Sequence record: NC_101835.1
Origin: a phage
DNA: 64,000 bases
Direction: 5' to 3' (one strand)
This document shows positions 47 to 50,195 of this stretch, one piece after another. A program made the position numbers and the translations under genes. Within the stretch, counting starts at the first letter, position 1; each line of letters opens with the position of its first letter. The notes beneath the pieces are model-generated. The model was not told where the DNA came from. It saw only the letters and a list, made by a program, of their open reading frames with translations, and ran no database searches.

Positions 47-232
47 ATGGTAAAAAATAAATCTTTAGAGCAGGCTGAAAACCTTCTCCACGAGCTGGTA
101 AAGGAGTGGAAAGTTGAATACTCAGATTTTAATGCACGAGAGGGTGAAGATTATTGGCCTACGGAGCGCTCAGAGGGCGAATGGTATCAAGATTTTATAG
201 AGTGGTTATATCAGACGTGCGATGAGGGGTGA
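47..232 (+). CDS. hypothetical small protein
   Basis: ORF with ATG 7 nt after AAGGAG; track TTG start at 29 less likely. Confidence 0.5.
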   Translation: MVKNKSLEQAENLLHELVKEWKVEYSDFNAREGEDYWPTERSEGEWYQDFIEWLYQTCDEG

Positions 233-234
233 CG

Positions 235-699
235 ATGTTTGTTAAATATGTAAAAACGTGCCTCAACAGTCTTGGCAGAGAGCATTGGTACACCTTGCTT
301 GAAAAAGGGGAAATTTTAACAAAATCTGGAAAGATAACTTTGATACCTCTTGATAGTAAAGGTAAAGACCCGTCACGACTTGTTATAGATGATTACGTTA
401 CAGGTGTGACGTTCGAGGTCTCTGTGGAGAGGTTAATACGCAGAGCTGGCGGCCCTTATGACCGAAGAGAGTATGTTTTCGATTCCGTTACAGAGATGGG
501 GGAGCATCCGTCTTTAATGTTCAGGATGGTAATCAGAGATATGAGGTCATCTATAGATAGGATCGTAAAGGACATTAAGGAACCTTTTAGAGTAAAAGTT
601 AAGAAGTTTTTCGATTCTAAGATTAACATACTCGCCGTTGCACTAGGTGTAGTTCAACTTCTGTTAATTTTGCACTATTTTGAACTGCTATTTAAGTAG
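235..699 (+). CDS. hypothetical protein with C-terminal hydrophobic segment
   Basis: ORF overlapping previous stop; GAGGGG upstream of ATG; C-terminal ILAVALGVVQLLLILHYF membrane-anchor-like. Confidence 0.5.
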   Translation: MFVKYVKTCLNSLGREHWYTLLEKGEILTKSGKITLIPLDSKGKDPSRLVIDDYVTGVTFEVSVERLIRRAGGPYDRREYVFDSVTEMGEHPSLMFRMVIRDMRSSIDRIVKDIKEPFRVKVKKFFDSKINILAVALGVVQLLLILHYFELLFK

Positions 700-761: not shown

Positions 762-1109
762 ATGCCAAAGATTAAAACGTTATTACTGTGGGTAGCTGTT
801 TTAGCTTTTATAGGGTACTGGACTTGGGAAACTGAATTAAAAGATATCGGATATACCAGTCTTGAGAGCAAGGCGTGCATTGGCATAACCGATGCGTTCA
901 GGCAAAATGCTATGGATCACGAATGTGTTGATGCAGATATAGATGAGAAACTGTCTAAGGACAAAGATTTTTACCATGGGCATGCTTTACTTGATAGTGG
1001 TGACACTGTAGAGTTCTGGTCGTGGTTTCGTGAAGATGGAACAATAAAAACAGCAGTAAAGATCTCTAACAAAGAGTTAATGCTGTTGCAGCAAAAGGAG
1101 GCTCAATGA
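762..1109 (+). CDS. hypothetical protein, N-terminal signal/TM segment
   Basis: AGAGGTAGAGAGA RBS before ATG; N-terminal LLLWVAVLAFIGYWTW hydrophobic. Confidence 0.55.
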   Translation: MPKIKTLLLWVAVLAFIGYWTWETELKDIGYTSLESKACIGITDAFRQNAMDHECVDADIDEKLSKDKDFYHGHALLDSGDTVEFWSWFREDGTIKTAVKISNKELMLLQQKEAQ

Positions 1110-2086: not shown

Positions 2087-2368
2087 ATGAAAAAGATTAA
2101 CAGTAGTGAAGTAGAGTTTAAACTTGTCGGAAAAGGCACTTACTGGGAAGTTCGTCAAAAGGTATATTTGTTCGGTCTTATTCCCTACTGGTCTAAATTC
2201 TACTGGGGAGCTAACGAGTTGGGAAGATACGCCACCAAATCAATGGCACTTATTGGTATAGCAGAGTACATTGCAGCCCGAGACAGGGTTGGAACCACTT
2301 ATTACTACACTGCTGACGATATTCGTAACAGTGTTTACGTCCCACAACCACCTGATGGAGACCGTTGA
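2087..2368 (+). CDS. hypothetical protein
   Basis: ATG after GAGGGAGA; track TTG start 2081 less likely. Confidence 0.5.
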   Translation: MKKINSSEVEFKLVGKGTYWEVRQKVYLFGLIPYWSKFYWGANELGRYATKSMALIGIAEYIAARDRVGTTYYYTADDIRNSVYVPQPPDGDR

Positions 2369-2592
2369 TGAAAGTTAAAGTTTTAGATTCAAGCTTCTAT
2401 ATTGGTCAGGAGCCTTTAGTAGGAAAAGTGTTTACTGCTGTCCCTAACGAAGATTACCCTGACCTTTTAAAAATAAAAGGAGCAGATCTTATTGCCGCTG
2501 GTGCATCTCAAGAATGCTTTGACAGTCAGTGGACCTATAACTTTGCCCTAGGTGAGGATGTAGAGGTAGTGGAGGACGATCATGAAGGTTAA
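2368..2592 (+). CDS. small acidic protein, paralog family 1 (copy A)
   Basis: MKVKVLDSSFYIGQ..GKVFTAV..ADLIAAGAS..GEDVEVVE; clear paralog of 2582-2836. Confidence 0.55.
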   Translation: MKVKVLDSSFYIGQEPLVGKVFTAVPNEDYPDLLKIKGADLIAAGASQECFDSQWTYNFALGEDVEVVEDDHEG

Positions 2593-3960: not shown

Positions 3961-4097
3961 GGTGCTACAATGGGTGTGATTAAGAAATTAGTCCCAAATG
4001 TAGAGATTGCATGCTTTGAAATTATGTTTGCAATCGCAGTTGTAGTTAATGTGTTAGGTTACGGCTATTAATATCAAATAATTGAGGAGACCTCTAA

Positions 4098-4367
4098 ATG
4101 AAAATTAAATTATTCCAAACTGAGCTGGCAGACAAAAATTGTGGACTGGTTGAAGGCATGATTGTTGAAGCACAACCAGTGGACTATATGAAGGTGGTTC
4201 GTGATGCCCTAGGTGAAGGTTTTGATCTGATGGAGCCAGCTCTGCGAGAAGATGTTATCGAGATGGCTAAAAAGCACACACCTGAAGGTTTGGTGGTGTT
4301 TGTTGCACCGGGTAACGGAGAAGAGTTGATTGTAACTCCTGATGTGTATGAGATTGTAGAGGAATAA
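4098..4367 (+). CDS. small acidic protein, paralog family 3
   Basis: GAGGAG RBS; MKIKLFQ.. ending ..TPDVYEIVEE; shared architecture with 5534-5791 and 6471-6758. Confidence 0.55.
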   Translation: MKIKLFQTELADKNCGLVEGMIVEAQPVDYMKVVRDALGEGFDLMEPALREDVIEMAKKHTPEGLVVFVAPGNGEELIVTPDVYEIVEE

Positions 4368-6847: not shown

Positions 6848-7111
6848 ATGAACATCCTGATGTGGGTTATAGCAGTGGCGTTTGTTGCATGTTTTTGCTG
6901 CTGGGTTGCGGTGAGGATTTCTGTAGCTACCCTTCGGAAGTTGGGGTTCTCAGAATGGGATATTAATATCCTTTCTTTTCGCAATGAAACAATCTCAGCC
7001 GCCCTGCTTTGTAAGAAATTTAAGTGGGAACCTTGTGAGGTCATGAGCTATCTAAGAACAGGCGATATCCCTGAAAGATTTAAAAAAGTTCTTGACGGCA
7101 AGGATAAATGA
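6848..7111 (+). CDS. small membrane protein
   Basis: GTGAGGTG RBS; N-terminal MNILMWVIAVAFVACFCCWVAV hydrophobic. Confidence 0.5.
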   Translation: MNILMWVIAVAFVACFCCWVAVRISVATLRKLGFSEWDINILSFRNETISAALLCKKFKWEPCEVMSYLRTGDIPERFKKVLDGKDK

Positions 7112-13536: not shown

Positions 13537-13685
13537 TTTTACCGCTCTTTAAAACAAGGTGCCAACCGTTTCCAATAGATCACTGACTGCCAGGACAATA
13601 CCGATCAGCACATATCTAACCATAAGGGGAAAGAGCGCCAATATTGCCACCACAATCCCCAAGGTGATAATTATCTTTCTCATGG

Positions 13686-13970
13686 TTAACGGTTCACGTA
13701 AGTTTTCCCGTTCACGGTTATGGGCAGATCCTCCAGGTCTGGATCTTCCTTAAGGTCGCGAGCAAGCTCACCGCACCGGATACCCTCGAATCCGTAGTAC
13801 TCTGTTGTGCCGTCCTTAAAAGTTTTAGCGGCAAGGCATAAGCGATAAGTAACCCCGATTTGATTGACGGCATGAATATCCGTTAGATTAACCTCTTTTG
13901 CCAGCTCTTTAGCCATTACAGGCGCATTAAGTCCAACAACCAGGGCAACCACTGCGATCATCTTTTTCAT
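13686..13970 (-). CDS. small secreted protein (signal peptide)
   Basis: MKKMIAVVALVVGLNAPVMA signal-like N-terminus; GAGGATGG upstream. Confidence 0.5.
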   Translation of the reverse strand: MKKMIAVVALVVGLNAPVMAKELAKEVNLTDIHAVNQIGVTYRLCLAAKTFKDGTTEYYGFEGIRCGELARDLKEDPDLEDLPITVNGKTYVNR

Positions 13971-14061
13971 TGTGTCCATCCTCTTTCTGCTACGTTTAAG
14001 GCGGCGGTAACCGCCTGTTTATGCTTTGTTGGTTAATTTTCGGGTATAGGTATAAATTAAA

Positions 14062-15060: not shown

Positions 15061-15294
15061 TCAACTATTTTCAAAAAATTTTTCTGCTGTGATATTCTTC
15101 CCGGTAGGGTTCGCTACTTTCAAAATTTTATCATGCACTGGACGCCCAAAAGAATAAGCGCCGTACACAGTAAACCAATAATCGCCGTCAGGTTGTACTA
15201 TTACTGCCGCATATGGTACGCCTTTTTCGTTTTTGCTGACAAAATAGATCACGTTGCCATTAATAGCCTCGGCGCGTTTAATTTGTTCCATCAT
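15061..15294 (-). CDS. hypothetical protein
   Basis: AGAGAGG RBS. Confidence 0.5.
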   Translation of the reverse strand: MMEQIKRAEAINGNVIYFVSKNEKGVPYAAVIVQPDGDYWFTVYGAYSFGRPVHDKILKVANPTGKNITAEKFFENS

Positions 15295-16716: not shown

Positions 16717-16964
16717 TCATCGTCTCCCCCTTTCATCCTGGTAGTAGTGACGTGGTTTACAATGGCCCCCAGGAGTACCATCACCACGCACATCACAAGA
16801 AAAATTATCTCTGTCGTTGTTCGATCCATTGTTATAAAATTCCTTAAGATCAGGCCTGAAAATAAAGCGTTCGTTATTGAATCCATCACGCCAGGCGGCT
16901 GGCTTCAAATCTTCATCAAAGGGATTAATTAACGTGGTATTATTTAAACGGCTGGCCCACATAT
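16717..16964 (-). CDS. hypothetical protein
   Basis: ATG after GAGAGGAATAGAAAAT; an alternative overlapping frame (16704-16889) also exists, so the call is uncertain. Confidence 0.3.
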
Positions 16965-17310
16965 TTTCTATTCCTCTCAAATAGGCGATCCGCCTCAGTT
17001 AAACAAATCTCATGGGCGTGATCTCTGGTTTTAGCTTCATCGAAAACCTGTTGTGCAAGGCTGCAGCGTAGGGAGACTGGAAGATCACTATAATAGGCGT
17101 TGACAAATGTTTGCGCGTCATACAGGTCGGAAAATACTTTACCCTTTCTATTATCGCCTTTGTCAACAATTGCAAGGATAACAAGTACAATAGTTGCAAC
17201 CACCCCCAGGAAAATAGATATAATAAACCATAAAAAGGCGGATCTACCCATCTTGCCAGCGATCCAGGCGTTAAACAAGGCAACTAATACGGCCAAAATA
17301 ATAAATTCCA
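16940..17310 (-). CDS. membrane protein (two predicted TM segments)
   Basis: AAAAGAGGTACATAGA before ATG (MEFIIL); hydrophobic ILAVLVALFNAWIAG and FLWFIISIFLGVVATIVLVILAIV. Confidence 0.5.
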
Positions 17311-17375
17311 TTCTATGTACCTCTTTTGCAGTTCTGTTTAACAATAAGGCGGCAAATATGCCGCCTGTTACCTGA

Positions 17376-19051: not shown

Positions 19052-19249
19052 CTATTTGTCTTTGTGGCGGTATCGTTCCGCTTGTCGTTCACGTTCCAAA
19101 AGCAGGCTGGGTAATTTGCGATCATAGTGATTTCGCCAGATCTTCCCAAATCTTTTCGGCTTATTCAGTTTATTGTTACGCTGGCGTCGTTCCGGCAGCT
19201 CTTCGGAATCATGAGATCGCTTTACAATCTTCTCAAAATTAATCTTCAT
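19052..19249 (-). CDS. small basic protein
   Basis: AGGGGGGAATAT before ATG (MKINFEKI); K/R-rich. Confidence 0.4.
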   Translation of the reverse strand: MKINFEKIVKRSHDSEELPERRQRNNKLNKPKRFGKIWRNHYDRKLPSLLLERERQAERYRHKDK

Positions 19250-19592
19250 ATATTCCCCCCTTGCTAACTTCAATATTGGCCTGAATAGCCCGGATACGGC
19301 GCTTTATAACCTCCTGATCCTTGCAATCATATCCCCAAAAGTCTACGATTTTTGCGCCTCCAGCCTTTAGGCGGTATAGTGTTTCTTGCATCTTGTAAGC
19401 CGGGATCGGTCGCGGTGTTACCTGGTCGCCCTTCTCATTCTTGTACTTGATAATGTAGTCTTCATTGTCGTTGAATACCCAAAATGGGTATTCTGTGAGC
19501 GCGTTGCTCTCTTTTTCGTTTTTAGATTGGATCTTGTTTACAATTAAAGCCGTAGCAATAGCGCCAATAATAAAACTTGCCCCGCTGATCAT
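19239..19592 (-). CDS. membrane-anchored protein
   Basis: AAAGGAGAAAGTAC before ATG (MISGASFIIGAIATALIV). Confidence 0.5.
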   Translation of the reverse strand: MISGASFIIGAIATALIVNKIQSKNEKESNALTEYPFWVFNDNEDYIIKYKNEKGDQVTPRPIPAYKMQETLYRLKAGGAKIVDFWGYDCKDQEVIKRRIRAIQANIEVSKGGIYED

Positions 19593-19667
19593 GTACTTTC
19601 TCCTTTCATTGTGTTGATAAACTATCTTTATAGATGGCCCTGCTACCAGGACCACCGAAAAAACAGC

Positions 19668-23043: not shown

Positions 23044-23373
23044 TCAGTTGTCTTTGTTTTTAGGTTTGTACATGCGCAGAGGTATGGTCTTTGTAACATT
23101 CCATTTCCTCAACCCTTCCCAGCTCCAGTTGTGGGCGTGGTATCCGGTTATGCATGCACTACTGGAGTGATCGTAAGCATAAGAGAACGCTAAGCGCACC
23201 AGGTGGGGCCAGTCCTTCCATGGTTGTGGACCGTAAGCTTTTCTCCAACACCGACACAAACTAAATGTCTCAAGGATAGGAAGGATAACAAACCCATACA
23301 CTGTCACCAAAATAGTCAGTGCAATGATTGTCAGGAACACATACCCTGCAGTTGAAATGATGATCTCTGTCAT
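23044..23373 (-). CDS. membrane protein
   Basis: AAAGGGGA RBS; N-terminal TM YVFLTIIALTILVTVYGFVILPI. Confidence 0.5.
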   Translation of the reverse strand: MTEIIISTAGYVFLTIIALTILVTVYGFVILPILETFSLCRCWRKAYGPQPWKDWPHLVRLAFSYAYDHSSSACITGYHAHNWSWEGLRKWNVTKTIPLRMYKPKNKDN

Positions 23374-39897: not shown

Positions 39898-41264
39898 ACG
39901 TCCCCCTCTTCGGCTCTGGTTTCAAAATCTTTCCTGACAATTTTGTCTAAGTCAGGGAATGTTGTATTGTAAAACTCTACGACTCGCGGGTCAACAATAA
40001 TGTCAACTTCTCTTAGTGGACGCAACAAGTTTATTCCTTGTATTGTCTTAACTCGACTCAAAGCAACATACGTCATCCCCGGAGAGAAAGCTCCGTTCTT
40101 TCCAAGGTCTAGGTTGTAACAATCTAGCGTAAGTCCTTGACTTTTATGAGATGTTACGGCGTACCCAGATTTCAGAGGAAGTTGCTTGTATGACCCAATC
40201 ACTACCCTCTCTATAAACTTCTCCATCTTCCTTTCTGCAATATTGTATCTCTGAGAGGGCTTATACTCGTTATTCTCCCACAACCTCTGCTCTATGTCAA
40301 CCTGTGTTCCATCTTCAAGCTCTACCACCACCGCCTTGTTCTTAAATTTAACAATTGTGGCACGTGTTCCGTTAACATAATAAGGTACTTTGTGCGTCGG
40401 GTCAACATCGTTGGCGGTTATCATAACTTTCATGCCAATTTTCAACTTCATCTCCTGCTCAACTGGCAGGGTGGAGGGAAACTTACCCTTCATTTCACCA
40501 GTGTATACCTTCTCTGGGGCGTTGATGGCATCATAGAACCTTCTGTTTACTTCCTCTGCTTGTTTGTTGGTGGCGCAAATTGTGAGAGCATCTGTTGGTA
40601 CACCACCTTTGTAACAGCGAGCATTAAGTTCTGCTACAACCTCTTTTATGCGACGACCCTCACGAACACAGTTGAGCATTGTGGCAAATCGAATAGACTC
40701 CTGTCGGAACTGATCTATTAGGGCTATGTTGTGGAGGTCAAGCTCTTTCCAAGATTCGGTATAGCAACACAGGTCCGTATGGTAGAAGTTGAAGTAGGCT
40801 TCCTTCTCCATAGAAGAGACAACAGGAGGTGCCTGGTAAAAATCGCCAAACAATATGACCTGTATGCCCCCGAAAGGTTTGTCATTTTTTCGAAGGAAGC
40901 GGAGTTTCCTATCCATCTCTATAAACTTATCAGCACGAATCATAGAGATTTCATCGATAATTAGGATGGTAAATGCCTTGCTTTTCAAAGGCTTTGCTGT
41001 TTTTGCCCTTATTGCGGTCCAGTCCGACTCCATGCTCACACCTGCTGCAAGATCGAAGGTTCGGTGTGCTGTTGCTCCATTAACGTTTAAAGCGGCTACC
41101 CCTGTCGGGGCAACCGTTATGCAAGAGTCTCCATACATTGACTGGATCATGTTGATGAGGTACGTCTTCCCACAACCTGCGGGTCCTGAAACGAAGACAT
41201 TCTCACCGCTCATGATTGCAACGAGGGCAGCATCTGTGCCTACATCATACTGCCCTTTTTCCAT
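39894..41264 (-). CDS. SF1B DNA helicase (Dda/Pif1/RecD-like)
   Basis: Walker A SGPAGCGKTY; Walker B LIIDEISM; C-terminal YAVTSHKSQGLTLD motif. Confidence 0.8.
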   Translation of the reverse strand: MEKGQYDVGTDAALVAIMSGENVFVSGPAGCGKTYLINMIQSMYGDSCITVAPTGVAALNVNGATAHRTFDLAAGVSMESDWTAIRAKTAKPLKSKAFTILIIDEISMIRADKFIEMDRKLRFLRKNDKPFGGIQVILFGDFYQAPPVVSSMEKEAYFNFYHTDLCCYTESWKELDLHNIALIDQFRQESIRFATMLNCVREGRRIKEVVAELNARCYKGGVPTDALTICATNKQAEEVNRRFYDAINAPEKVYTGEMKGKFPSTLPVEQEMKLKIGMKVMITANDVDPTHKVPYYVNGTRATIVKFKNKAVVVELEDGTQVDIEQRLWENNEYKPSQRYNIAERKMEKFIERVVIGSYKQLPLKSGYAVTSHKSQGLTLDCYNLDLGKNGAFSPGMTYVALSRVKTIQGINLLRPLREVDIIVDPRVVEFYNTTFPDLDKIVRKDFETRAEEGDV

Positions 41265-42469
41265 TACGCCTCCTCGTAAAGAATGTCGATAGTATTACCG
41301 TCACGATCAACTACATATTCAATAGGGTCTCCATCTTTGCGTGCTTCCGGAGCTACCACAATCTCATAGCGGCATGCACGGCACTTAGCGCTATTGTGTT
41401 GGTATGGCACACTAACCACATCTGCAGGATCAACCATAACAGTCATTACAGTGCCGTAGCTCTTTGCATACTCTTTGCTGGCGCAGTGTAAGCCATAGGA
41501 GCACGCAGCTTCCGGATCATCCTCTACAAAGTTACGAGGCATGGATACAAAAGCACCCTGGTATTGTGGAACTTTACCACTGTGCCAATCCACCCACTTG
41601 CTGCCGTTAAACTGAACCCCTTTGTAGCAAATGATTCGACCATCTTCTGCAATCTGGATATCGTTGGCCTGCATAAAATCGTAGAGCATGTTTACAGATT
41701 TTGCAGAAGGATTGCGTAGCAGGCGAACGAGGAATTTCACATAGCGGTCATCCAGCGTTCCGTCTGCATAATCTTTCTCAATTTTCTTTGCAATGGTGGA
41801 TCGCATCTCTACACCGTAGTAGTAGAGCTTACCATCTTTCATGATCAGGTTGTCTGCAAGTGTGGTGAACTCATTCTTGCGTTCCAGCCAGACAAGGATT
41901 TCACCAATTGCCTCATCATATTCCTGAACAGAGATATGGTCGAAGACTTTCTGGTAAACTTCCTCACTTTCGCTGCGGCGAATTTCAAAAATGCCTTCGT
42001 TGCAGGTGATCTGGAGGAGTTCACCACAAATAACTACCAAAGGCTCGATGCTTCGAGTCTGTTGCTGAGACACACTGCTCACCACCTCCAGCACCGGGTC
42101 TTTGACTTCTACTAAAGGTTCTTCTGACTTGATTGCCACCCCAGTGAACCCCACACCGTGAACAACACACAGTGGGTATACCACGCCCCAACGTTTAACG
42201 GAACCTTCGCCTAAGTCTAAGATCATGGCGTACTTACCATTATCTTCCAGCCCATATCGAAATAGACGGGCCTCTTCACGGGTTTCAAAATCCTCACGGG
42301 TGTAGCAGACGCTGTCACGGTCAGGATCGAACAATTCTGGGGCACCCACTGCCAGTGTCCAGGTTGTGTCACCTTTCTCAATGGCACATGTGAAACCCTT
42401 CTTCTCAAGTTCTGCACGGCGGTCGCGTGCTTCTTTACGAGTTTTGAAATGTTCGTAGATGAAAATCAT
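41264..42469 (-). CDS. rIIB: rIIB-like protein
   Basis: C-terminal AACSYGLHCASK..VMVDPADVVSVP..KCRACRYE resembles T4 rIIB (TCSYGLHVCSK..VHPRDVVSIP..KMRTCQYE); directly downstream of rIIA-like gene. Confidence 0.7.
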   Translation of the reverse strand: MIFIYEHFKTRKEARDRRAELEKKGFTCAIEKGDTTWTLAVGAPELFDPDRDSVCYTREDFETREEARLFRYGLEDNGKYAMILDLGEGSVKRWGVVYPLCVVHGVGFTGVAIKSEEPLVEVKDPVLEVVSSVSQQQTRSIEPLVVICGELLQITCNEGIFEIRRSESEEVYQKVFDHISVQEYDEAIGEILVWLERKNEFTTLADNLIMKDGKLYYYGVEMRSTIAKKIEKDYADGTLDDRYVKFLVRLLRNPSAKSVNMLYDFMQANDIQIAEDGRIICYKGVQFNGSKWVDWHSGKVPQYQGAFVSMPRNFVEDDPEAACSYGLHCASKEYAKSYGTVMTVMVDPADVVSVPYQHNSAKCRACRYEIVVAPEARKDGDPIEYVVDRDGNTIDILYEEA

Positions 42470-42479
42470 CTTGGTCTCC

Positions 42480-44462
42480 TTATTTGATGTTATTCTTTGT
42501 ATCGATCAGTTCACGGTATTCAATCATAGCAGGAGTGTCCCAATATTTCAAGCCTACATGCTTCAAAAGTGGGTATTTCTTTTCCAATCTTGCAATATAG
42601 GCCTTCCCGCATTTAACTCGGTTGGCGATTAAGATTTTGGCACGATGATTTAGCTCACTGTGCTTCCACGTGGTGTTACCTTCCCACTTGTGGAAATGTG
42701 GCCGATAATTTCCAAAATCTTGCATGGGAATAATTTTCCCTAATTGTCTATACAGGCTGTCATAAGAAGTCTCATTTGCTGCACGGGTCAGTAAGAATTT
42801 CCAAGCATCCTCTTTCAACAGGTGCTCCACATTCTTCTCTGTAACATACTGGCAATCAGGATCAGTCCAAAGCAGACGAGATTCAGATACCAGATACAGA
42901 TCTTCACCTTCAGGAATCTGAAGTGCCGCACGTACACGGTCATAATCTTGCTGGTAGATGTTACTCATCTGCCCCAGCCAACAACTTCCACGTTGGATAT
43001 CACCCTCATAAGGGATGCAGTGTTTAATCTTCCGGAACTCTGCCTTAGTAATACGCTCACGGCGGAAGTAACCATCCTTCTCAAGTTTTTTAACCCAATA
43101 GCCTGGCTCATAACGAGTTTTTGTTTCACCTTTCTTGGCAGGTCGGCGAGGGAGCTCCGATAACAATTTGACCGTATCTGCAAAGAACGGGTGGTGTGCC
43201 GCTTCTTTAAACTCTTCCACCAGATCCGTGGTACGGCAATAGAAAACGTTGCGTCCGGTGATCTCGCTTAAGTAGTTACACTTATTTCGGTTATATTTGC
43301 CGTCTCCGTCGTTAAATACTAAATAGACTCCCCGTAAGAACTCTGACTTTCCATAACGAGCATAGCCTATGCGGCCTTTATTTAAGCCGCCAGCGAAAAT
43401 TTCACAATCGCCTAAGTCTCCAAGTCCTGTTTCTTCCCAACGGTTCCACATAAAGTTTTTGCCGAAGATGTGTCCGAACACCCCACTATTCTTCATCATT
43501 TCACGTGCTTCTGAGGATGTTTTTGCTGTTTCCAATTCCGCAACAACTTCTGCCCCACGAAGACGGATACCTTCTTTGACAAAGGCCTCCAGGCGATCCT
43601 GGAATCCACCGTCGTCATGGCCCTCTATGGTCCATTCACGCCCAGGGTTAATATTGCAATCCCCAATAGGAATTTCCACGCAGATTGCAGGGTAATCGGT
43701 CAATGTCTCCAGGAACTTGGAGCGGTAAGGTTGGTGACCCATCACAACACGGCTCTCATCAGAACTGGTATAACCTTTCAGGATGGTCATTTTCCAGCCA
43801 TCCTTCTCGTAATGATACTGTGCCTCAACCTTGTCACCTTCTAACATCTTACTGGTCATAGGATCGGTGACGATGAACGGAAACTTCGCATAGCGTAAGC
43901 ACGATGCAATAGCAGTGCGATATTTCAGGACATGCTCTTTCTTAACATGGAACTGAACTTTTACCCCGTTGTGCTCTTCAGTCTTCCGCTCACGGATCTT
44001 GGTAACGTTTGGGATACCCTGATCCAAGAACAATAGATATGTGCTTTCAACACCATTGTGCACACTGATAACATCGAAAGTGTCCACCATACTGAACGGA
44101 GCCTTTGAACCAACACCTTTATTACCTACCAGAGCGTTGCTGTTGCGCTTGGTTGACTCCCCGAGATTCATGAAAGTGTTGCGGACCATCTCTTCTGACA
44201 TGCCCAATCCAACGTCCTGCACAAAGAAGTATGGTTCAAGGTCTGTAGGGGAGTGAATGATGATCGGTACATCACCCCGTCCAGACTCAACATGGGAGTC
44301 CACAGCATTGAAGATTGGTTCACGGCAGCTTGCCAGCACCTTATCTTCGTAAATCCCTTTAATGATTAGCCCAAAAGTCTCTTTGTTCAGAGAAATTGAG
44401 CCCCTGGTGACCTCCATATTTCCGGTTAGTACTGCTTTAGTTTCATTACTGTTTACAATCAT
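42480..44462 (-). CDS. rIIA: rIIA-like protein (GHKL ATPase fold)
   Basis: N-terminal FNAVDSH, FFVQDVGLGMSEE and GNKGVGSKAPFSMVDTF match the T4 rIIA N-terminal ATPase-like motifs. Confidence 0.75.
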   Translation of the reverse strand: MIVNSNETKAVLTGNMEVTRGSISLNKETFGLIIKGIYEDKVLASCREPIFNAVDSHVESGRGDVPIIIHSPTDLEPYFFVQDVGLGMSEEMVRNTFMNLGESTKRNSNALVGNKGVGSKAPFSMVDTFDVISVHNGVESTYLLFLDQGIPNVTKIRERKTEEHNGVKVQFHVKKEHVLKYRTAIASCLRYAKFPFIVTDPMTSKMLEGDKVEAQYHYEKDGWKMTILKGYTSSDESRVVMGHQPYRSKFLETLTDYPAICVEIPIGDCNINPGREWTIEGHDDGGFQDRLEAFVKEGIRLRGAEVVAELETAKTSSEAREMMKNSGVFGHIFGKNFMWNRWEETGLGDLGDCEIFAGGLNKGRIGYARYGKSEFLRGVYLVFNDGDGKYNRNKCNYLSEITGRNVFYCRTTDLVEEFKEAAHHPFFADTVKLLSELPRRPAKKGETKTRYEPGYWVKKLEKDGYFRRERITKAEFRKIKHCIPYEGDIQRGSCWLGQMSNIYQQDYDRVRAALQIPEGEDLYLVSESRLLWTDPDCQYVTEKNVEHLLKEDAWKFLLTRAANETSYDSLYRQLGKIIPMQDFGNYRPHFHKWEGNTTWKHSELNHRAKILIANRVKCGKAYIARLEKKYPLLKHVGLKYWDTPAMIEYRELIDTKNNIK

Positions 44463-44959
44463 TTATTGCGCTCCTTGTAGTAGATATGACTCCCGAATTG
44501 AGCTGTCCTCTGCATCTTTTTTGCCCATTTCGGTCGTACTTTGGTTGTATGGTAGTGTGTTGCTCCACCTGTTATATCCATAGCCATGTATGCAACATGG
44601 TTGTTATTATAGACCTTTAGAAGCATCTTTGCAAGACTTTTAGCGTGATCCCATGAATCTTTTTCTGTCACCTTAAAAGTTTTGCCGTGGTTTGTCCACG
44701 AAAACTGGTTGGGTTGGTAGACAATCTTTCTTATAGTGTCTGGGTATTTAGGGTGAGATTTCCTGTTTAATGTGGCAAACCCAGATGCCAGCATACCCAT
44801 CGTGCCATCCCCTCTAGCTTCCCTGTAGATATTACATGCCAAAATGTTTTCCTTAGTATCTGAGGGCTTGCAAGTATGATATACTTTTTGTTTTGGTGCT
44901 GCAACAACAGGCAGCGATAAAAATGCGCTCAAAATAATAGCAAAGATCTTAATTTTCAC
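44459..44959 (-). CDS. secreted cell-wall hydrolase (SleB/Hydrolase_2-like)
   Basis: GTG start after GGAG; signal peptide MKIKIFAIILSAFLSLPVVAA; NIYREARGDGTMG..LNR..YPDTIRKIVYQPNQFSW. Confidence 0.6.
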   Translation of the reverse strand: MKIKIFAIILSAFLSLPVVAAPKQKVYHTCKPSDTKENILACNIYREARGDGTMGMLASGFATLNRKSHPKYPDTIRKIVYQPNQFSWTNHGKTFKVTEKDSWDHAKSLAKMLLKVYNNNHVAYMAMDITGGATHYHTTKVRPKWAKKMQRTAQFGSHIYYKERNK

Positions 44960-45007
44960 AATAACTCCAAATAGAAAATCCCCGCCGAAGCGGGGTGGTA
45001 TTAGAAA

Positions 45008-45388
45008 TTAATCGTAGTGTGCCAAAATCTCTCCATCGTTGCAAGTTCCCTCTACAAAGTTATGAAGATTCATGCACTCATCTTGATAGAAGAATTTACC
45101 GCTTTTCAGCCGTAAGCCAAACAACTCCGCATCTCCACGATGGCAAGCCTCTACAAGTTCATAGATTTCATACGGCAACTCTCCGTCGTCATGGAAGAAC
45201 CCAGCCTTATCGTTGACATAGATGAAGAAATAATCACTGCTATCGCAAGCGTCCAATATTTTAAACCAGATTTCATCTACATCTTTTTCTCGGATATCGA
45301 TCACGCAAGTGGAGCTGCATTCGTACTCCTTCTCCGGCTCCTCGGTCAATACCACCAGGTAGTTTCCCCGCTTACCTACTTTAGCCAT
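45008..45388 (-). CDS. hypothetical acidic protein
   Basis: AAGGAGG RBS. Confidence 0.5.
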   Translation of the reverse strand: MAKVGKRGNYLVVLTEEPEKEYECSSTCVIDIREKDVDEIWFKILDACDSSDYFFIYVNDKAGFFHDDGELPYEIYELVEACHRGDAELFGLRLKSGKFFYQDECMNLHNFVEGTCNDGEILAHYD

Positions 45389-45397
45389 ACAACCTCC

Positions 45398-46582
45398 TTA
45401 AGCTTTAGCCAAAATGGCGCTAAACTCTTCACCAAACTCTTTTACAATCTTCATCAGGTTTGGGTATGCTTTGATCAGCTGAGCAACAATCTTGTCACGA
45501 CCTTTACCGATAAGCAAGGCATTTCCTAAGGCATTAGGTTTCATCATCGCCATAAAGACTGAGAATACAAAATCTCGGTTCTCGTCCTTGAAGTTTTCCC
45601 AAAGGAAATCGAGGAAGTTTGCCACACAGCTAACAAGATCTTCGTCGGAGATACTTGCATTTTCCATCATATTACGAATAGCGATACAACCTTCAGATCC
45701 AAGAATCCACAAGATGTCTGGCTGTTTAGGGCCTACGTATTCTTTGCAACCTCCTGCCATAATCCGACCTATTTCCGGTAAGTTGCGTTTCTTGGTGTGG
45801 TAAGTCCAGATCTCTACCGCTGCAGTGTGACCAATAGCACCTTGTAGAAGAACACGGGCCATAGCGTCAGAAATAATACCGCTGTCAAAATCGTGCAAGA
45901 TATCAGATGCAGCAACCCAAGATCGCGGTGTGGCAAAAGATGGACAATTAATCTCAGCCATGGCCTCATAATTATCAATAGCTGATGGAACTCTTTTCAG
46001 ATATCCAATTACAGAGGAGTGCACCCCATTAAGGAATGCGTAGTCCTCAATAAACACCTCTGCGTTGCTTGTAACTTCTACAATGATAAAGCGGTTAGCC
46101 AGAGGGGCTTCGAGCGCCGAAAGAACAGCACCATCTGTAGAACGGTTACCTGCAGCTACAAAAACAGAGCCCTTAGGGAATGCATAGGTGCCACACTTGT
46201 GGTCGAGCATAATCTGCATTGCAACCTTTTGCAGGTAGTTATCTGCATGAGTGAGCTCATCCAGAAAGACAATTCCGCTCCAGTCAGGATCCGCAGGCCA
46301 AAATTCTGGGATTGCAAACACTGTACGTGTAGTCCCATCCGCTTCTACAGGGATAGGTAGCCCAGATAAGTCGGCAGGATCTTTATCTGACAGCCGCACG
46401 TCAACCAGGTTGTCATCTCTCTCACCGAACATATTATCAGCGATCTGCTTCATCACCTGACTCTTTCCCACACCCATTGGTCCTAAAATCAGGACAGATC
46501 GGTTATGACGCTGGGCAAACTGAATGATAGCTGGCAACTCACGGACAGTGATTTGACCACTTTCAAATACGTTTCTTGACAT
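45398..46582 (-). CDS. AAA+ ATPase (MoxR/CobS-like, AAA_5-type)
   Basis: Walker A LILGPMGVGKSQV; Walker B IVFLDELTHA. Confidence 0.7.
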   Translation of the reverse strand: MSRNVFESGQITVRELPAIIQFAQRHNRSVLILGPMGVGKSQVMKQIADNMFGERDDNLVDVRLSDKDPADLSGLPIPVEADGTTRTVFAIPEFWPADPDWSGIVFLDELTHADNYLQKVAMQIMLDHKCGTYAFPKGSVFVAAGNRSTDGAVLSALEAPLANRFIIVEVTSNAEVFIEDYAFLNGVHSSVIGYLKRVPSAIDNYEAMAEINCPSFATPRSWVAASDILHDFDSGIISDAMARVLLQGAIGHTAAVEIWTYHTKKRNLPEIGRIMAGGCKEYVGPKQPDILWILGSEGCIAIRNMMENASISDEDLVSCVANFLDFLWENFKDENRDFVFSVFMAMMKPNALGNALLIGKGRDKIVAQLIKAYPNLMKIVKEFGEEFSAILAKA

Positions 46583-46884
46583 TAGTAAAAGTCCTCTACT
46601 TGTGTGTAAGTGTTTTCAAAGTTTTCCAAAACAGATATCACATCGGATCTGTCAATATCGTACACAACTTCCCAGTTGTATGCAACCCTTTCTGCTGTTG
46701 CCTCTTCTGGCGCTAGTCGTCTGCTGGCATAAAAGAGTGTTGGAGTACACTTTCTTGCTTGCCCTCTAACTTTCCCATAATAATATCTGTGAATATCTTT
46801 GTCAAAATTTAACTCTTTTTCTGCACGAAGTTCATATTGCTGGTATAACATGTTTATTACTCTTTTAAGTGGCATCCTTGCCAC
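46582..46884 (-). CDS. hypothetical protein
   Basis: ORF coupled to AAA+ gene; true start ambiguous (GTG/ATG candidates). Confidence 0.4.
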   Translation of the reverse strand: MARMPLKRVINMLYQQYELRAEKELNFDKDIHRYYYGKVRGQARKCTPTLFYASRRLAPEEATAERVAYNWEVVYDIDRSDVISVLENFENTYTQVEDFY

Positions 46885-46890
46885 TACCTG

Positions 46891-47271
46891 CTAGAATACG
46901 GTCCGAATCCAGACAAGGTTCTTATCTGCCCAATCATAGAGGCAAGTCATTGCACTGTTGAATTGCTCACACGGAGGATAATCTTCTTCCATCTGGCGCA
47001 TAGCAGAGCCTTGTGGGTAAAGCTCCTGTGCTGCAAACCACGCGTCGTAGTCATCAACGGTGTCGAAGTAGTATACAACATCCTCCAACTCAGGATCGAA
47101 CTTTGAACTATCAGGATCCAGTTGTTCAGGGAACTTGGAGCGTAACTTGCCAGCCACAATACTTGCCAACTCGCTAACATGCTTATTGTCCCACTCCACT
47201 AGCTTCCCGCCTTCAGTGATGCGTCCTAACCACTGATCATGAAGGTCAACTGTTGTCTTCCACTGGGCCAT
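46891..47271 (-). CDS. hypothetical protein
   Basis: AAGAGGTGG RBS. Confidence 0.5.
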   Translation of the reverse strand: MAQWKTTVDLHDQWLGRITEGGKLVEWDNKHVSELASIVAGKLRSKFPEQLDPDSSKFDPELEDVVYYFDTVDDYDAWFAAQELYPQGSAMRQMEEDYPPCEQFNSAMTCLYDWADKNLVWIRTVF

Positions 47272-47273
47272 TA

Positions 47274-47531
47274 TCAGTCCACCTCTTCTTCTCGTTGTAG
47301 TTCAAGATACCCGTAGGTCTGGACATCTTCAAGGGTGTGGAACTCCTCATCTGCCGCTAATGCACGAACAACTTGGCACAAAACCTTATGAGGAACTTCA
47401 TCCAGACCAAGATTCAGTGCAGGGAACACCTTATCTAAGTCAACAAAATAAATGAACTGTAGCTCACCAGCTTCAAAAGGTGTATCTTCAATAAACATCT
47501 TCTCGGCATTAGTCAAGATCTGCACTTTCAT
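47274..47531 (-). CDS. hypothetical protein
   Basis: GAGGAGG RBS. Confidence 0.5.
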   Translation of the reverse strand: MKVQILTNAEKMFIEDTPFEAGELQFIYFVDLDKVFPALNLGLDEVPHKVLCQVVRALAADEEFHTLEDVQTYGYLELQREEEVD

Positions 47532-47887
47532 TATTCTACCTCCTCTTCTTTTTCTTCGGCATTAGTTTCATGGCTACCCCACTCTGGAGTTTCCACCTCG
47601 ATAGTAAACTCACGCACTACACGGTAATTACCCATGAAGCGCTCCACTTCGTCAAGGCTTACGGAGAAGCCATTGGCAACCAGGTCTGCAGCACCCTCTT
47701 CTACCAGGTAGTCCAGATTGGCTTCCAGAGCTTCAGGCTCAAACCCTGTCAATGCAATCAGATAACCTTCCCCTTCATCAGGTAGGACAATACAGCCCAA
47801 CTGATTTTCTTTAAAAAGGCAGTGACCATCATTATTGATCGGGTGTTCATTGCAGTAAATAGCTGCACGATAAGTAACTTTAGACAT
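47531..47887 (-). CDS. hypothetical acidic protein
   Basis: AAGGAGACC before ATG (MSKVTYRA). Confidence 0.5.
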   Translation of the reverse strand: MSKVTYRAAIYCNEHPINNDGHCLFKENQLGCIVLPDEGEGYLIALTGFEPEALEANLDYLVEEGAADLVANGFSVSLDEVERFMGNYRVVREFTIEVETPEWGSHETNAEEKEEEVE

Positions 47888-47900
47888 AGGTAAGGTCTCC

Positions 47901-48173
47901 TTAGGCAATTGTCATTTTACATTCTTGAAATTTTAACACAAGACGGTGATTGTGCCTAGTGTCTAAAAAGATTTTCTCAACCATCAGGCACACGGTATAA
48001 CCGTCCATCTTGTTGATAACAAAATCTCCAGGGTGAGGGAGGATGTCTCCCGGATTGGGGAAACATAGTCCACTCAGAAAGGCATCGTCAGTGGTGGACT
48101 TAATAGATTTCCACACACTGTCTGCCTGAACATGTTCACCGACGTAATATACATTACCACATGCCTTCATCAT
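47901..48173 (-). CDS. hypothetical protein
   Basis: GAGGG upstream of ATG (MMKACG). Confidence 0.45.
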   Translation of the reverse strand: MMKACGNVYYVGEHVQADSVWKSIKSTTDDAFLSGLCFPNPGDILPHPGDFVINKMDGYTVCLMVEKIFLDTRHNHRLVLKFQECKMTIA

Positions 48174-48175
48174 AG

Positions 48176-49075
48176 TCAAACCCTCGCATAAATTAAACTT
48201 GTATCAGTATACTTCTTTAATGGGTAAATATCCTGTCCATAGATGCAATCATTAAACACCTCATCTACCCAAAGGCTACACTTATATCCCATCATTTCTA
48301 AAACACCCATCTCTTCTTCGGTAAACTTATCACCGCTCTTGCAAGATGTCAATACCTCATTCTGAACTCTTGCTACCTCGAAGCGGTTATTGGCAATATC
48401 GCTATTGGCGATCAAATACTCACCTAGAGGGTGTGCGGCATTAAAGATGCACAGTGGACGGCTGACGTAATAGTCTCCGGGTGTATAAAAATTGTTGAGG
48501 TCTTTCACTAGAACATTCTTATCAGTCACTTCATTTATAACATCATGCATATCGCACATCTTTATATGTTTGAGGATTCCATCCCCCATCACAAAATAAA
48601 AACTTGCTGAGACACTTTCGGCATAGATCTTACTAGATCCGTTGTAGTTGTATTTTACTCGGATGCTAACGGGGGTTTTTCCTGTCGCGTTAGCCATCAT
48701 CCAAAGAAATGGCAGCTCATACTTCTCCTCTGAGGAAACAAAAGGTGAGGTAGCCAGAGATCGAAAACCTCCAGAGAAGTTGAAAGTTACAGAACCGCTC
48801 CGGCGGTATGATACCGCGTATTCTACTTTTATATCGACATACCCATTGGAATAGGTGTGTCCTTCATTATCTAAATATGTCCACTTATCAGACCCAGATA
48901 CCAATCTACGCTCAATAACCTTCATCACTATAGGAATTAATGGGTTGGTACAAACCGCTTTTGAAGTAGCTTTATCATCTAAAGCCTCGTAAATTGCAGA
49001 AAGGATGTCTCCAGCTGAAAGATTGGTTGTTATATCCTGTTGCCACCGCGTACTAAAACTGTTAAGATTTGCCAT
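48176..49075 (-). CDS. hypothetical protein (299 aa)
   Basis: AGGAGC RBS; first gene of leftward operon from the divergent promoter. Confidence 0.55.
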   Translation of the reverse strand: MANLNSFSTRWQQDITTNLSAGDILSAIYEALDDKATSKAVCTNPLIPIVMKVIERRLVSGSDKWTYLDNEGHTYSNGYVDIKVEYAVSYRRSGSVTFNFSGGFRSLATSPFVSSEEKYELPFLWMMANATGKTPVSIRVKYNYNGSSKIYAESVSASFYFVMGDGILKHIKMCDMHDVINEVTDKNVLVKDLNNFYTPGDYYVSRPLCIFNAAHPLGEYLIANSDIANNRFEVARVQNEVLTSCKSGDKFTEEEMGVLEMMGYKCSLWVDEVFNDCIYGQDIYPLKKYTDTSLIYARV

Positions 49076-49115
49076 GAGTGAGTGCTCCTATGTTAGTTTT
49101 CTTTCGAATGGGTGC

Positions 49116-49144
49116 ACTATATCGGAGATTTAGAGTAAAGTCAA
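49116..49144 (-). promoter_or_regulatory. sigma70-like promoter (TTGACT-N17-TATAGT), leftward
   Basis: Minus strand TTGACT (49139-49144) and TATAGT (49116-49121). Confidence 0.5.
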
Positions 49145-49157
49145 CACGTTTTTGATG

Positions 49158-49186
49158 TTGACATCTGTTGAGACAATTGATAAGAT
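49158..49186 (+). promoter_or_regulatory. sigma70-like promoter (TTGACA-N17-TAAGAT), rightward
   Basis: TTGACA 49158-49163, TAAGAT 49181-49186; back-to-back with the leftward promoter. Confidence 0.5.
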
Positions 49187-49217
49187 TTCTTCACTTACAG
49201 AGCACGAGAGACAACTC

Positions 49218-50195
49218 ATGAATCTTGAAAAATATTATACACCAGAAGAGTTAGAGCGCCTGCTCAAAAAATATAGACGCAAACAGAATAATGCACGGAA
49301 ACGAGATATAGAGTTCGACCTGTCGTGGGAAGAATACCTACTATTTGGTAAAAAACTTTTAGGGGAAGGGGTATGCGACTACACCCTTATACCTTTCGAC
49401 ATGCACACAGATGAAAACGGACTGGGAAATCCTTTCTATCCATCTCTGGAGCGGATAGATGATGAAGGTCCTTACGCAATTGATAATTGTTGTGTGGTAG
49501 GGTTGAGGTGCAACGCTCTGAAGGACTGTCTGGTAGATAAAAAGACTGCAATATTGATAAAAGACAAAACTGATCGAAAAATTGTCCAGCAGATGATGCT
49601 CCACCTGAGCGAAGAGCGTATGGAGAAATTGAAAGGTGATTATACTTTCGAAGATTTCATCTTGCAATACGGGACAGAAGAAGATAAACTAGCACTTTTT
49701 GACGAAGAGGAAGAAGATATGTCACCAATGCAGGACTTTAAAAATTTCATGGCTGATCGTGCAGCCAACAAACACATTTCAGATATCGTAAACGAAACTG
49801 TGACAGAAGAAATTGAAGAACAGAACTCTGAAGAGGAAAAAGAGCCTCAGGAGGTCGAAGAGGAGATTGCAGAAGAGGTTCCTGCACTGCCTGATGATGT
49901 TGAGGTTGCTAAGGCTTACACTTTCTATTGTCAAACGTTCTACGATGCAGGTATGAAAGTTGATCTGTCGTTCAGCCAATTTAAGAGTTCATATATTCGC
50001 AAATGCTGTGCTTTAACTGGTGAACGTCTCGGAGCTGGACTTAAACCGCTGTTGGTGACCGACTGGAATAAAGGTTTCACTAAAGGAAACTTTATGGTAG
50101 TATCTCCAATTATGGAAAAAGCCATGACAGATCTTATGAAGACCACTCGCATGACAATGACTGAGTTGGCAGGTATTTTCAAACACGTTAAATAA
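49218..50195 (+). CDS. hypothetical protein with HNH-like DRID-type segment and acidic linker
   Basis: ATG after GAGAGA, downstream of promoter (track start 49152 would overlap it); PSLERIDDEGPYAIDNCCVVGLRCNALK; E-rich linker. Confidence 0.45.
   Translation: MNLEKYYTPEELERLLKKYRRKQNNARKRDIEFDLSWEEYLLFGKKLLGEGVCDYTLIPFDMHTDENGLGNPFYPSLERIDDEGPYAIDNCCVVGLRCNALKDCLVDKKTAILIKDKTDRKIVQQMMLHLSEERMEKLKGDYTFEDFILQYGTEEDKLALFDEEEEDMSPMQDFKNFMADRAANKHISDIVNETVTEEIEEQNSEEEKEPQEVEEEIAEEVPALPDDVEVAKAYTFYCQTFYDAGMKVDLSFSQFKSSYIRKCCALTGERLGAGLKPLLVTDWNKGFTKGNFMVVSPIMEKAMTDLMKTTRMTMTELAGIFKHVK

Follow-up and report, generated by a model that had tools for sequence, protein, structure and literature searches.

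A SleB-like cell wall hydrolase with a predicted signal peptide, encoded beside rIIA in an rV5-like coliphage, is likely an accessory periplasmic enzyme and not the host-lysing endolysin

The window, which is the whole stretch of 64,000 nucleotides analysed from sequence record NC_101835.1, belongs to a Vequintavirus (rV5-like coliphage) and carries a gene for a SleB-like cell wall hydrolase on its minus strand. The open reading frame has boundaries of exactly 44459..44959, and it sits behind a terminator in a long early unit, together with replication genes. The gene and the features around it are as follows.

41264..42469, minus strand: rIIB homologue, 401 aa
42480..44462, minus strand: rIIA homologue, 660 aa, with an HATPase_c_3 domain, immediately 3' of the hydrolase gene
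44459..44462, minus strand: ATGA overlap of the hydrolase TGA stop and the rIIA ATG start, a translational-coupling arrangement also found in Bas54
44459..44959, minus strand: coding sequence for the 166-aa SleB-like cell wall hydrolase, predicted to be exported; begins with GTG and ends with TGA; orthologous to bas54_0065 and rV5 gene 2
44965..44968, minus strand: GGAG ribosome-binding site, 5 nt 5' of the hydrolase GTG start, kept in Bas54
44969..44995, minus strand: intrinsic terminator hairpin CCCCGC-UUCG-GCGGGG, then AUUUUCUAUUU; equals rV5 terminator t003 and is kept in Bas54
45008..45388, minus strand: acidic 126-aa protein of unassigned function, upstream of the hydrolase, without transmembrane segment
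45398..46582, minus strand: MoxR-type AAA ATPase, whose Bas54 orthologue is bas54_0063
49116..49144, minus strand: sigma-70-like promoter (rV5 P010) heading the minus-strand unit
49158..49186, plus strand: divergent promoter paired with P010

The sequence-only reading had placed the hydrolase gene inside the replication operon. This holds in so far as the long early unit includes replication genes, whereas the direct, coupled partner of the hydrolase gene is rIIA, followed by rIIB, and accessory genes, MoxR among them, are found upstream. Terminator t003 is placed between the upstream 126-aa gene and the hydrolase gene, and neither a gene with transmembrane segments nor a pinholin-like gene adjoins the hydrolase gene in the window. 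The MoxR orthologue bas54_0063 has been reported as an anti-defence gene. The upstream 126-aa gene and the gene that precedes the SleB-like gene of T5 show no homology to each other, so that in this way a conserved gene pair shared with T5 is not demonstrable; the rV5 paper nevertheless reports the 126-aa protein as a homologue of T5.083.

The window hydrolase is the product of rV5 gene 2, annotated 'cell wall hydrolase' (166 aa, 19052 Da, pI 10.0), and is identical to it except for the reading of the GTG start codon. Gene 2 bears this annotation in more than 100 phage records, and many database records name the protein 'endolysin'. Among Vequintavirus alleles, 8-10 synonymous codon differences stand against 0-1 non-synonymous ones, the sole non-synonymous difference being F13L within the signal peptide, and the gene is under purifying selection. 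The gene is real, and its product is probably a secreted, cell-wall-cutting enzyme. It is already known, having been annotated since the rV5 genome publication, and earlier publications on the phage subfamily had noted both its signal peptide and its location outside the lysis cassette. As annotation, signal peptide, position and dispensability are all on record, the locus has little weight as a discovery.

Within the hydrolase, three features are distinguished.

44900..44959, minus strand: predicted Sec signal peptide, residues 1-20 (MKIKIFAIILSAFLSLPVVA), from hydropathy and motif analysis, low pLDDT and homologues
44819..44821, minus strand: codon GAA of Glu47, in the motif N-I-Y-R-E-A-R-G, aligned with the Glu of SleB Y-G-E-S-R-G-E
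44477..44809, minus strand: Hydrolase_2 (PF07486) catalytic domain by Pfam, residues 51-161; fold and PDB alignments extend to about residue 38

The N-terminus reads MKIKIFAIILSAFLSLPVVAA, as quoted in the sequence-only reading, which had recognised both a signal sequence and a Hydrolase_2/SleB-like core; hydropathy, domain and fold analyses bear out both. Specifically, the n-region contains two Lys residues and is followed by an h-region that is strongly hydrophobic (mean Kyte-Doolittle value 2.6 for residues 5-19), rich in Ile, Leu and Phe, and free of Gly. A Pro at -5/-6 and then V-x-A / A-A directly precede APKQK, and this helix-breaking Pro after the h-region, together with small residues at -3/-1, is the pattern of a cleavable signal. 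The likely signal peptidase I site lies between VVA and APKQ, and Pro22 adjoins it. A lipobox is absent because the first 29 residues contain no Cys, and across the whole protein hydropathy analysis finds no further hydrophobic segment beyond the N-terminal one. In the AlphaFold model, residues 1-20 have low pLDDT and are disordered. Additionally, a hydrophobic N-terminus is present in 132 of the 150 closest cluster representatives, and signal peptides ending in AxA occur in homologues from the Mydovirus, Seunavirus, Certrevirus, phi92-like and T5-like groups. By sequence criteria, the protein thus has a cleavable signal peptide on a murein hydrolase, as is the case for the Lys44 type, and both sequence rules and homologues suggest that it would be exported and cleaved.

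The catalytic domain matches Pfam Hydrolase_2 PF07486 almost from end to end (E=2.1e-19; 70.4 bits vs a cut-off of 27; profile positions 2-100 of 100), and PHROG 938, annotated 'endolysin', is matched with E=1.7e-27. The PDB SleB entries 4f55 and 4fet are matched by sequence (E=2.5e-6), and they are also the only significant matches in PDB when the AlphaFold model (pLDDT 88.5) is searched with Foldseek, with target-normalised TM-scores of 0.72-0.79. The Pfam, PHROG and PDB sequence matches lie far outside what chance would give. Bacillus SleB and CwlJ have in common with the window hydrolase the Hydrolase_2 fold and the Glu in Y-x-E-[AS]-R-G. In the homologue alignment, Glu47 and the QFSWT motif are invariant, and N-x-aromatic-x-E-[AS] is kept in 127 of the 150 closest cluster representatives. 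A C-x(8-14)-C pattern preceding the catalytic Glu, to which Cys30 and Cys42 of the hydrolase would correspond, is not used as evidence because it is present in just 32/150 of these representatives. On the other hand, the hydrolase is no SleB equivalog: TIGR02869 scores 48.3 bits vs a cut-off of 236.5 and is covered at model positions 83-201 only. Unlike Bacillus SleB, to which its identity is only 21-24%, the hydrolase has no N-terminal PG_binding (peptidoglycan-binding) domain by Pfam. Bacillus SleB requires the muramic-delta-lactam of the spore cortex, whereas the coliphage host E. coli has no spore cortex and its murein contains no muramic-delta-lactam; activity of the hydrolase on the host wall is therefore not guaranteed. 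Lytic transglycosylase chemistry on E. coli murein is an inference. Our literature search found neither an enzymatic assay for a phage member of this clade nor a biochemical study of any Hydrolase_2 enzyme of phages with Gram-negative hosts, and the endolysin of a uropathogenic E. coli phage described in a 2026 preprint is an unrelated R21-type SAR enzyme.

The sequence-only reading had also stated that no holin or canonical endolysin lies nearby, and this is correct within the window. A tblastn search of the window with the lambda-R-type endolysin LL12 gp90 and with gp91 returned chance matches only, and the only annotated 'putative holin' is about 27 kb from the hydrolase gene. The two-transmembrane-segment protein 4MG_271 has no homologue near the hydrolase gene, its best match in the window being E=0.038 at 15145..15219. 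A 156-aa open reading frame at 229..699 was considered as the family endolysin, which has the same length, and rejected, with no Pfam match, an unrelated sequence and a C-terminal transmembrane segment. At other genomic positions, rV5-like phages encode a separate lambda-R-type endolysin (rV5 Gp89, LL12 gp90, LysECP26) together with a pair of spanins, and LysECP26 has been demonstrated to be muralytic. The endolysin and spanins of the phage family fall outside the window. Such separate canonical lysis genes are one half of what the sequence-only reading had named as refuting its proposal, the other half being a lack of muralytic activity.

The Bas54 orthologue, bas54_0065, is identical to the window hydrolase at 165/166 residues. 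In the Bas54 transposon screen, bas54_0065 was disrupted at 32/36 TA sites and classed 'Non-essential', whereas the same screen recorded zero reads in the endolysin bas54_0202 and the spanins bas54_0001/0002. In the available part of the clinical isolate comparison, bas54_0065 was not depleted (log2FC -0.88, adjusted p=1). This non-essentiality covers one laboratory host and one clinical isolate, and it is also compatible with a protein of no use under the conditions tested. Judged from these published data, the hydrolase is not required for lysis and plaque formation. A canonical holin-dependent endolysin is cytoplasmic and linked to holin and spanin genes; the hydrolase, with its signal peptide, does not fit this description. 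As a phage lysis enzyme, the signal-dependent endolysin is thus not sustained, and the other option that the sequence-only reading had offered, action at a stage other than lysis, is supported. The annotated 'putative holin' is itself non-essential in the Bas54 data and is therefore probably not the real holin of rV5-like phages, whose lysis pathway is partly mapped. The T5 SleB-like gene has no entry in the CRISPRi-ART supplements, and rV5-like phages are outside the scope of a second preprint on transposon mutagenesis.

A word-indexed homologue search returned 10 proteins only, and the size of the family was revealed by an exhaustive HMMER search. The Vequintavirus orthologues (among them bas54_0065, bas56_0063 and LL12 gp2; 166 aa) are 99-100% identical to the window hydrolase and have the same neighbours, terminator t003 and ATGA overlap with rIIA; Bas54 differs by F13L in the signal peptide and otherwise in nothing of substance. 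The architecture of a signal peptide followed by Hydrolase_2 is common to CB7_83, CR3_087, 4MG_270, KB57_245 and the PVP-SE1/BME3 'second endolysin', as well as to phi92-like homologues and the T5-like 'SleB putative cell wall hydrolase'. The homologues in other Vequintavirinae and related phages are 35-53% identical to the window hydrolase and lie in an early or replication region, away from the main endolysin; their phages carry another endolysin. In Seunavirus and Mydovirus, a small gene for a protein with two transmembrane segments, absent in the window, is found between the hydrolase gene and rIIA. Certrevirus, unlike the window, has no rIIA/B; the CB7 paper reports a similar two-transmembrane-segment gene there and states that the Certrevirus homologue has a signal peptide and is toxic on expression in E. 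coli (data not shown there), which lends indirect support to a peptidoglycan-cleaving activity. CR3_087 has been described as 'implicated in host lysis'.

Taken together, we consider it likely that gene 2 encodes an accessory periplasmic lytic transglycosylase of the SleB/Hydrolase_2 family, Sec-exported and dispensable, and that this is not the enzyme that lyses the host. In the mechanism we propose, host RNA polymerase would start at the early sigma-70-type promoter heading the long unit on the minus strand and reach gene 2 by reading through the terminator just before it, and the GTG start codon together with this terminator would keep expression low; 'early, low level' is here read only from the positions of promoter and terminator. 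The small, basic protein (pI ~10) would then be exported by Sec, cleaved around the VVA and AP junction and released into the periplasm, where Glu47 would catalyse cleavage of glycan strands. The result would be an accessory conditioning of the wall, dispensable for plaques on laboratory E. coli K-12; host lysis itself would be the task of the spanins and of the separate lambda-R-type endolysin in the cytoplasm. The enzyme may benefit the phage, and our best reading goes as far as a lytic transglycosylase that acts on peptidoglycan in the periplasm in an accessory role and is maintained by purifying selection. VirB1, P19 and EtgA are likewise small, signal-peptide-bearing, non-essential glycan-strand cleavers, which remodel murein locally for secretion or conjugation machines. 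They belong to the SLT/PF01464 family, whereas the window hydrolase belongs to Hydrolase_2 and has no associated envelope-spanning machine identified; the analogy is a functional one.

Murein hydrolases that cross the inner membrane by an N-terminal signal and need no holin are exemplified by Lys44 of the Oenococcus phage fOg44, P1 Lyz and R21, which belong to other catalytic families and are the lysis enzymes of their phages. That the window hydrolase is a holin-independent endolysin of the Lys44 type, or a backup endolysin, contributing directly to lysis at the end of infection is suggested by its signal peptide and murein hydrolase domain, by the 'endolysin' annotation of PHROG 938 and of many records, by the toxicity of the over-expressed Certrevirus homologue and the description of CR3_087, and by the class II holin-like two-transmembrane-segment protein encoded directly downstream in sister genera. 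We nevertheless regard it as unlikely. The hydrolase coexists with a canonical endolysin, and its gene is freely disruptable in Bas54, which differs from the service of Lys44, P1 Lyz and R21 as lysis enzymes; the lambda-R-type endolysin of Bas54 tolerates no insertions, so that the SleB-like enzyme, expressed at its native level, is unable to take its place. Additionally, a holin-like partner is missing from the window, and the gene directly adjoins rIIA and lies in an early unit behind a terminator. A SAR-type enzyme, in which an uncleaved N-terminal segment would anchor the enzyme in an inactive state to the inner membrane, with release on depolarisation, appears improbable. In its favour, the N-terminal segment is hydrophobic and Pro22 is next to the putative cleavage site; in the Nankokuvirus homologue (PAO1_Ab03 ORF43), the N-terminal segment is longer, Gly/Ala/Ser-rich and without an obvious AxA, and the two-transmembrane-segment gene of neighbouring genera could serve as a pinholin. 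However, the SAR domains of P1 Lyz and R21 are weakly hydrophobic and Gly/Ala-rich, whereas the strongly hydrophobic, Gly-free h-region of the hydrolase, followed by P-V-V-A-A, favours a cleavable signal; close homologues have canonical AxA sites, and the gene is dispensable.

We hold as possible, though doubtful, that the hydrolase is an envelope-directed competition or host-range factor forming an accessory module with MoxR and rIIA/rIIB, with roles such as superinfection exclusion, counter-defence or support for the lysis of hosts whose murein is modified or of the stationary-phase type. In line with this, the gene is translationally coupled to rIIA, its MoxR and rIIA/B neighbours are anti-defence or conditional genes, and it is under purifying selection yet laboratory-dispensable. 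Moreover, phi92-like homologues adjoin VWA-domain or glycosyltransferase accessory genes, and T5-like phages with a holin-endolysin pair of their own carry homologues in their early regions. Two observations weigh on the other side: depletion was not seen in the available clinical isolate data, and adjacency to the rII genes is limited to some genera, because Certrevirus has none. A virion-associated lysin that opens the wall during DNA injection would also have a peptidoglycan hydrolase domain, but we consider this reading highly improbable, since a Sec signal peptide directs the protein away from the cytoplasmic site of assembly. The gene is distant from the structural module and non-essential, gene 2 is absent from the proteins listed in the rV5 paper from virion mass spectrometry, and there are separate candidates for a baseplate-associated lysin, namely a gp25-like protein and the central spike 'tail lysozyme'.

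Beyond the accessory periplasmic role preferred here, we tentatively raise an origin for the gene: the hydrolase may be what is left of an ancestral second cassette of lysis type beside rIIA/rIIB, and may since have become a conditionally important envelope-conditioning factor. The ancestral cassette would have comprised the signal-peptide hydrolase and a small pinholin-like protein with two transmembrane segments, an arrangement that would still be whole in Seunavirus and Mydovirus and is reported in Certrevirus. In Vequintavirus, the membrane partner would have been lost and the hydrolase then translationally coupled to rIIA. At present, the hydrolase might help to lyse stationary-phase or wall-modified hosts, or might control the timing of lysis or superinfection. 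If true, this history would explain why such an enzyme is kept under purifying selection in T5-like, rV5-like and phi92-like phages, and possibly in Pseudomonas myoviruses, despite its dispensability in the laboratory. When phage enzymes are mined as antibacterials, the 'endolysin' labels of the hydrolase in databases are probably misleading, and many large virulent phages of Gram-negative hosts keep a second, Sec-exported murein hydrolase of the SleB family in their early regions.

The hydrolase N-terminus is exactly MKIKIFAIILSAFLSLPVVAA, as quoted by the sequence-only reading, and its gene is arranged as follows.

44459..44959, minus strand: hydrolase ORF, 166 codons, GTG start, TGA stop, GGAG ribosome-binding site 5 nt upstream

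The hydropathy profile of the product is of the Sec signal peptide type. Specifically, an n-region with two Lys residues and a strongly hydrophobic h-region, IFAIILSAFLSLPVV (Kyte-Doolittle mean 2.6), are followed by Pro and the small residues V-V-A-A, and then by a hydrophilic, basic mature part with a pI of about 10. Since signal peptidase I is blocked by a +1 Pro, VVA|APKQ is the likely predicted cleavage site. Residues 1-29 contain no Cys, which excludes a lipobox, and the whole protein contains no second hydrophobic segment. A SAR-type, membrane-tethered form is considered unlikely for this protein. The Nankokuvirus homologue has a more SAR-like N-terminal anchor.

The remainder of the protein is, by profile match, a Pfam Hydrolase_2 domain (PF07486, E=2.1e-19, 70.4 bits, cut-off 27), and it also matches PHROG 938 (E=1.7e-27) and the SleB catalytic domains in the PDB (E=2.5e-6). 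In the AlphaFold model (mean pLDDT 88.5), only residues 1-20 are of low confidence, and SleB structures 4f55 and 4fet are its sole significant Foldseek matches in the PDB. Glu47 (N-I-Y-R-E-A-R-G) aligns with the Glu of SleB Y-G-E-S-R-G-E and is invariant across the aligned homologues. Taken together, the signal-like N-terminus, Hydrolase_2 domain, SleB fold and invariant Glu47 confirm the earlier observation of a signal sequence joined to a SleB-like core. Assignment as a SleB equivalog was rejected, as the TIGR02869 score, 48 bits, falls short of the 236.5 required and the protein lacks a peptidoglycan-binding domain.

The hydrolase is rV5 gene 2, for which the rV5 paper gives the entry "cell wall hydrolase, 166 aa, 19052 Da, pI 10.0, PF07486", in agreement with the computed 19053 Da and pI 10.01. 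At 97-99% identity, the region matches over 100 records of coliphages in the genus Vequintavirus (rV5-like), and in over 70 records the protein is identical, translation of the GTG start aside, labelled variously "hypothetical protein", "endolysin", "putative cell wall hydrolase" or "cell wall hydrolase SleB". The CB7 paper states that all Vequintavirinae genera have SleB-like homologues, that these bear a signal peptide, and that expression of the CB7 protein in E. coli is toxic. The finding is real yet already known, with annotation in 2008-2013, discussion in 2020 and a demonstration of dispensability in 2025. Sixteen GenBank MG0656xx "Campylobacter phage" records (C7, C9, A112b and others) share 97-99% identity with window 40000..50000, and their host labels look doubtful.

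The HIDEN-SEQ transposon screen, reported in supplementary tables, included Bas54, whose bas54_0065 product is identical to the hydrolase at 165 of 166 positions.

Bas54 (phage MaxBurger) genes in the HIDEN-SEQ screen
bas54_0065: SleB-like hydrolase; insertions at 32/36 TA sites, about 916 reads on average; "Non-essential"
bas54_0202: lambda-R-type endolysin; zero reads
bas54_0001 / 0002: spanins; zero reads
bas54_0066 / 0067: rIIA, rIIB; non-essential
bas54_0115: "putative holin"; non-essential
bas54_0063: MoxR ATPase; conditional, needed against a defence system in a single clinical isolate

The recognised endolysin of rV5-like phages is a lambda-R-like protein of 156 aa (rV5 Gp89, LL12 gp90, LysECP26), and purified LysECP26 has been shown to be muralytic. 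The spanin pair adjoins the large terminase gene. By collinearity with LL12 and Bas54, endolysin and spanins lie outside the window, the endolysin about 22 kb past its left edge; a tblastn search of the window with the lambda-R-type endolysin gave no match. The statement that no holin or endolysin cassette is evident nearby holds within the window. The window has just one gene annotated as a "putative holin".

16940..17311, minus strand: "putative holin", bas54_0115 orthologue, about 27 kb from the hydrolase; about 123 aa, 2-3 transmembrane segments

Since bas54_0115 is non-essential while endolysin and spanins carry no insertions, the annotated gene is apparently not the true holin of rV5-like phages. 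LL12 gp91 (2222..2428 of the LL12 comparison locus, outside the window), directly downstream of the endolysin, has 68 aa, a hydrophobic N-terminus and a possible lipobox, LFMAACLAC; its positional counterpart bas54_0201 is non-essential. Within the window, 13686..13979 (-) encodes 97 aa with a clear signal peptide, MKKMIAVVALVVGLNAPVMA|KE, and several more small ORFs for membrane proteins are present at 762..1109(+), 6848..7111(+), 13549..13683(-), 19239..19655(-) and 23044..23373(-).

The best-supported reading is that the hydrolase is a predicted accessory, Sec-exported periplasmic lytic transglycosylase of the SleB family, and neither the lysis enzyme nor a virion component. A signal-dependent endolysin, proposed earlier, is disfavoured by zero reads in the lambda-R-type endolysin against hits at 32 of 36 TA sites in bas54_0065, whereas the other proposal, a function other than lysis, fits these data; a backup or holin-independent endolysin has no appreciable probability, the "endolysin" labels notwithstanding. 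The same is true of a virion lysin, and gene 2 is not among the virion mass spectrometry proteins listed in the rV5 paper. Beside the best-supported reading, only a conditional envelope or competition factor keeps appreciable probability, and it is compatible with the accessory-enzyme reading. In the clinical isolate, bas54_0065 showed no significant depletion (log2FC -0.88, adjusted p=1). Within Vequintavirus, 8-10 synonymous codon differences separate the alleles, with 0-1 non-synonymous ones, which indicates purifying selection on the gene.

The hydrolase TGA overlaps the rIIA start codon (ATGA), and after rIIA come rIIB and then the gene of a PIF1-like helicase; on the upstream side are genes for an acidic 126-aa protein and for a MoxR ATPase.

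41264..42469, minus strand: rIIB
45398..46582, minus strand: MoxR-type AAA ATPase, second gene upstream from the hydrolase, bas54_0063 orthologue

Bas54_0063 is reported to be necessary to overcome DS-28, a predicted defence system, in an E. coli clinical isolate, so the genes around the hydrolase are of the accessory and anti-defence kind. The transcription unit is headed by bidirectional sigma-70-like promoters near 49.1 kb (rV5 P010 and P011), which puts the hydrolase in a long, putatively early unit comprising rV5 genes 10-1-238-164. A strong intrinsic terminator (CCCCGC-UUCG-GCGGGG, then AUUUUCUAUUU), already listed for rV5 as t003, separates the 126-aa gene from the hydrolase, with no promoter predicted between t003 and the hydrolase gene. 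Transcription would probably reach the gene by reading through the terminator, and translation would begin at GTG, a weak start codon. Bas54 keeps the terminator, ribosome-binding site, GTG start and ATGA overlap. Residues 8-42 of rIIB give a weak Pfam SPOR-domain match (E=0.0014, 19.3 bits, below the cut-off of 21); two F-x-T-R-x-E-A repeats are visible by eye, and the match may be chance.

An exhaustive HMMER search with the hydrolase recovered 11,334 cluster representatives at E<=1e-3. Among the 150 closest, a hydrophobic N-terminus is seen in 132 and the catalytic motif in 127. AxA-type signal peptides occur on homologues from Mydovirus KB57, Seunavirus 4MG, Certrevirus CR9, phi92-like ALITA and T5-like phages, and in several of these groups another endolysin is known. 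Distinct from Vequintavirus, 4MG and KB57 carry a small two-transmembrane-segment gene after the hydrolase, and the window holds no homologue of it.

4MG comparison locus (L006) 4036..4209: 4MG_271, Seunavirus
KB57 comparison locus (L005) about 4033..4190: unannotated counterpart, Mydovirus

In 4MG, rIIA, rIIB and a helicase follow across the record boundary. CR9 lacks rII. The two-segment protein is conserved in Seunavirus and Mydovirus (51-57 aa, basic C-terminus); its gene separates that of the SleB-like enzyme from rIIA, and the protein is similar to a class II holin or pinholin. Upstream of the SleB-like gene, KB57_244 (L005 3039..3458) and its 4MG equivalent (L006 3048..3458), unrelated to the window's acidic 126-aa protein, are repetitive, rich in G-N-T and V-S-G-D-V, and resemble a bactofilin beta-helix.
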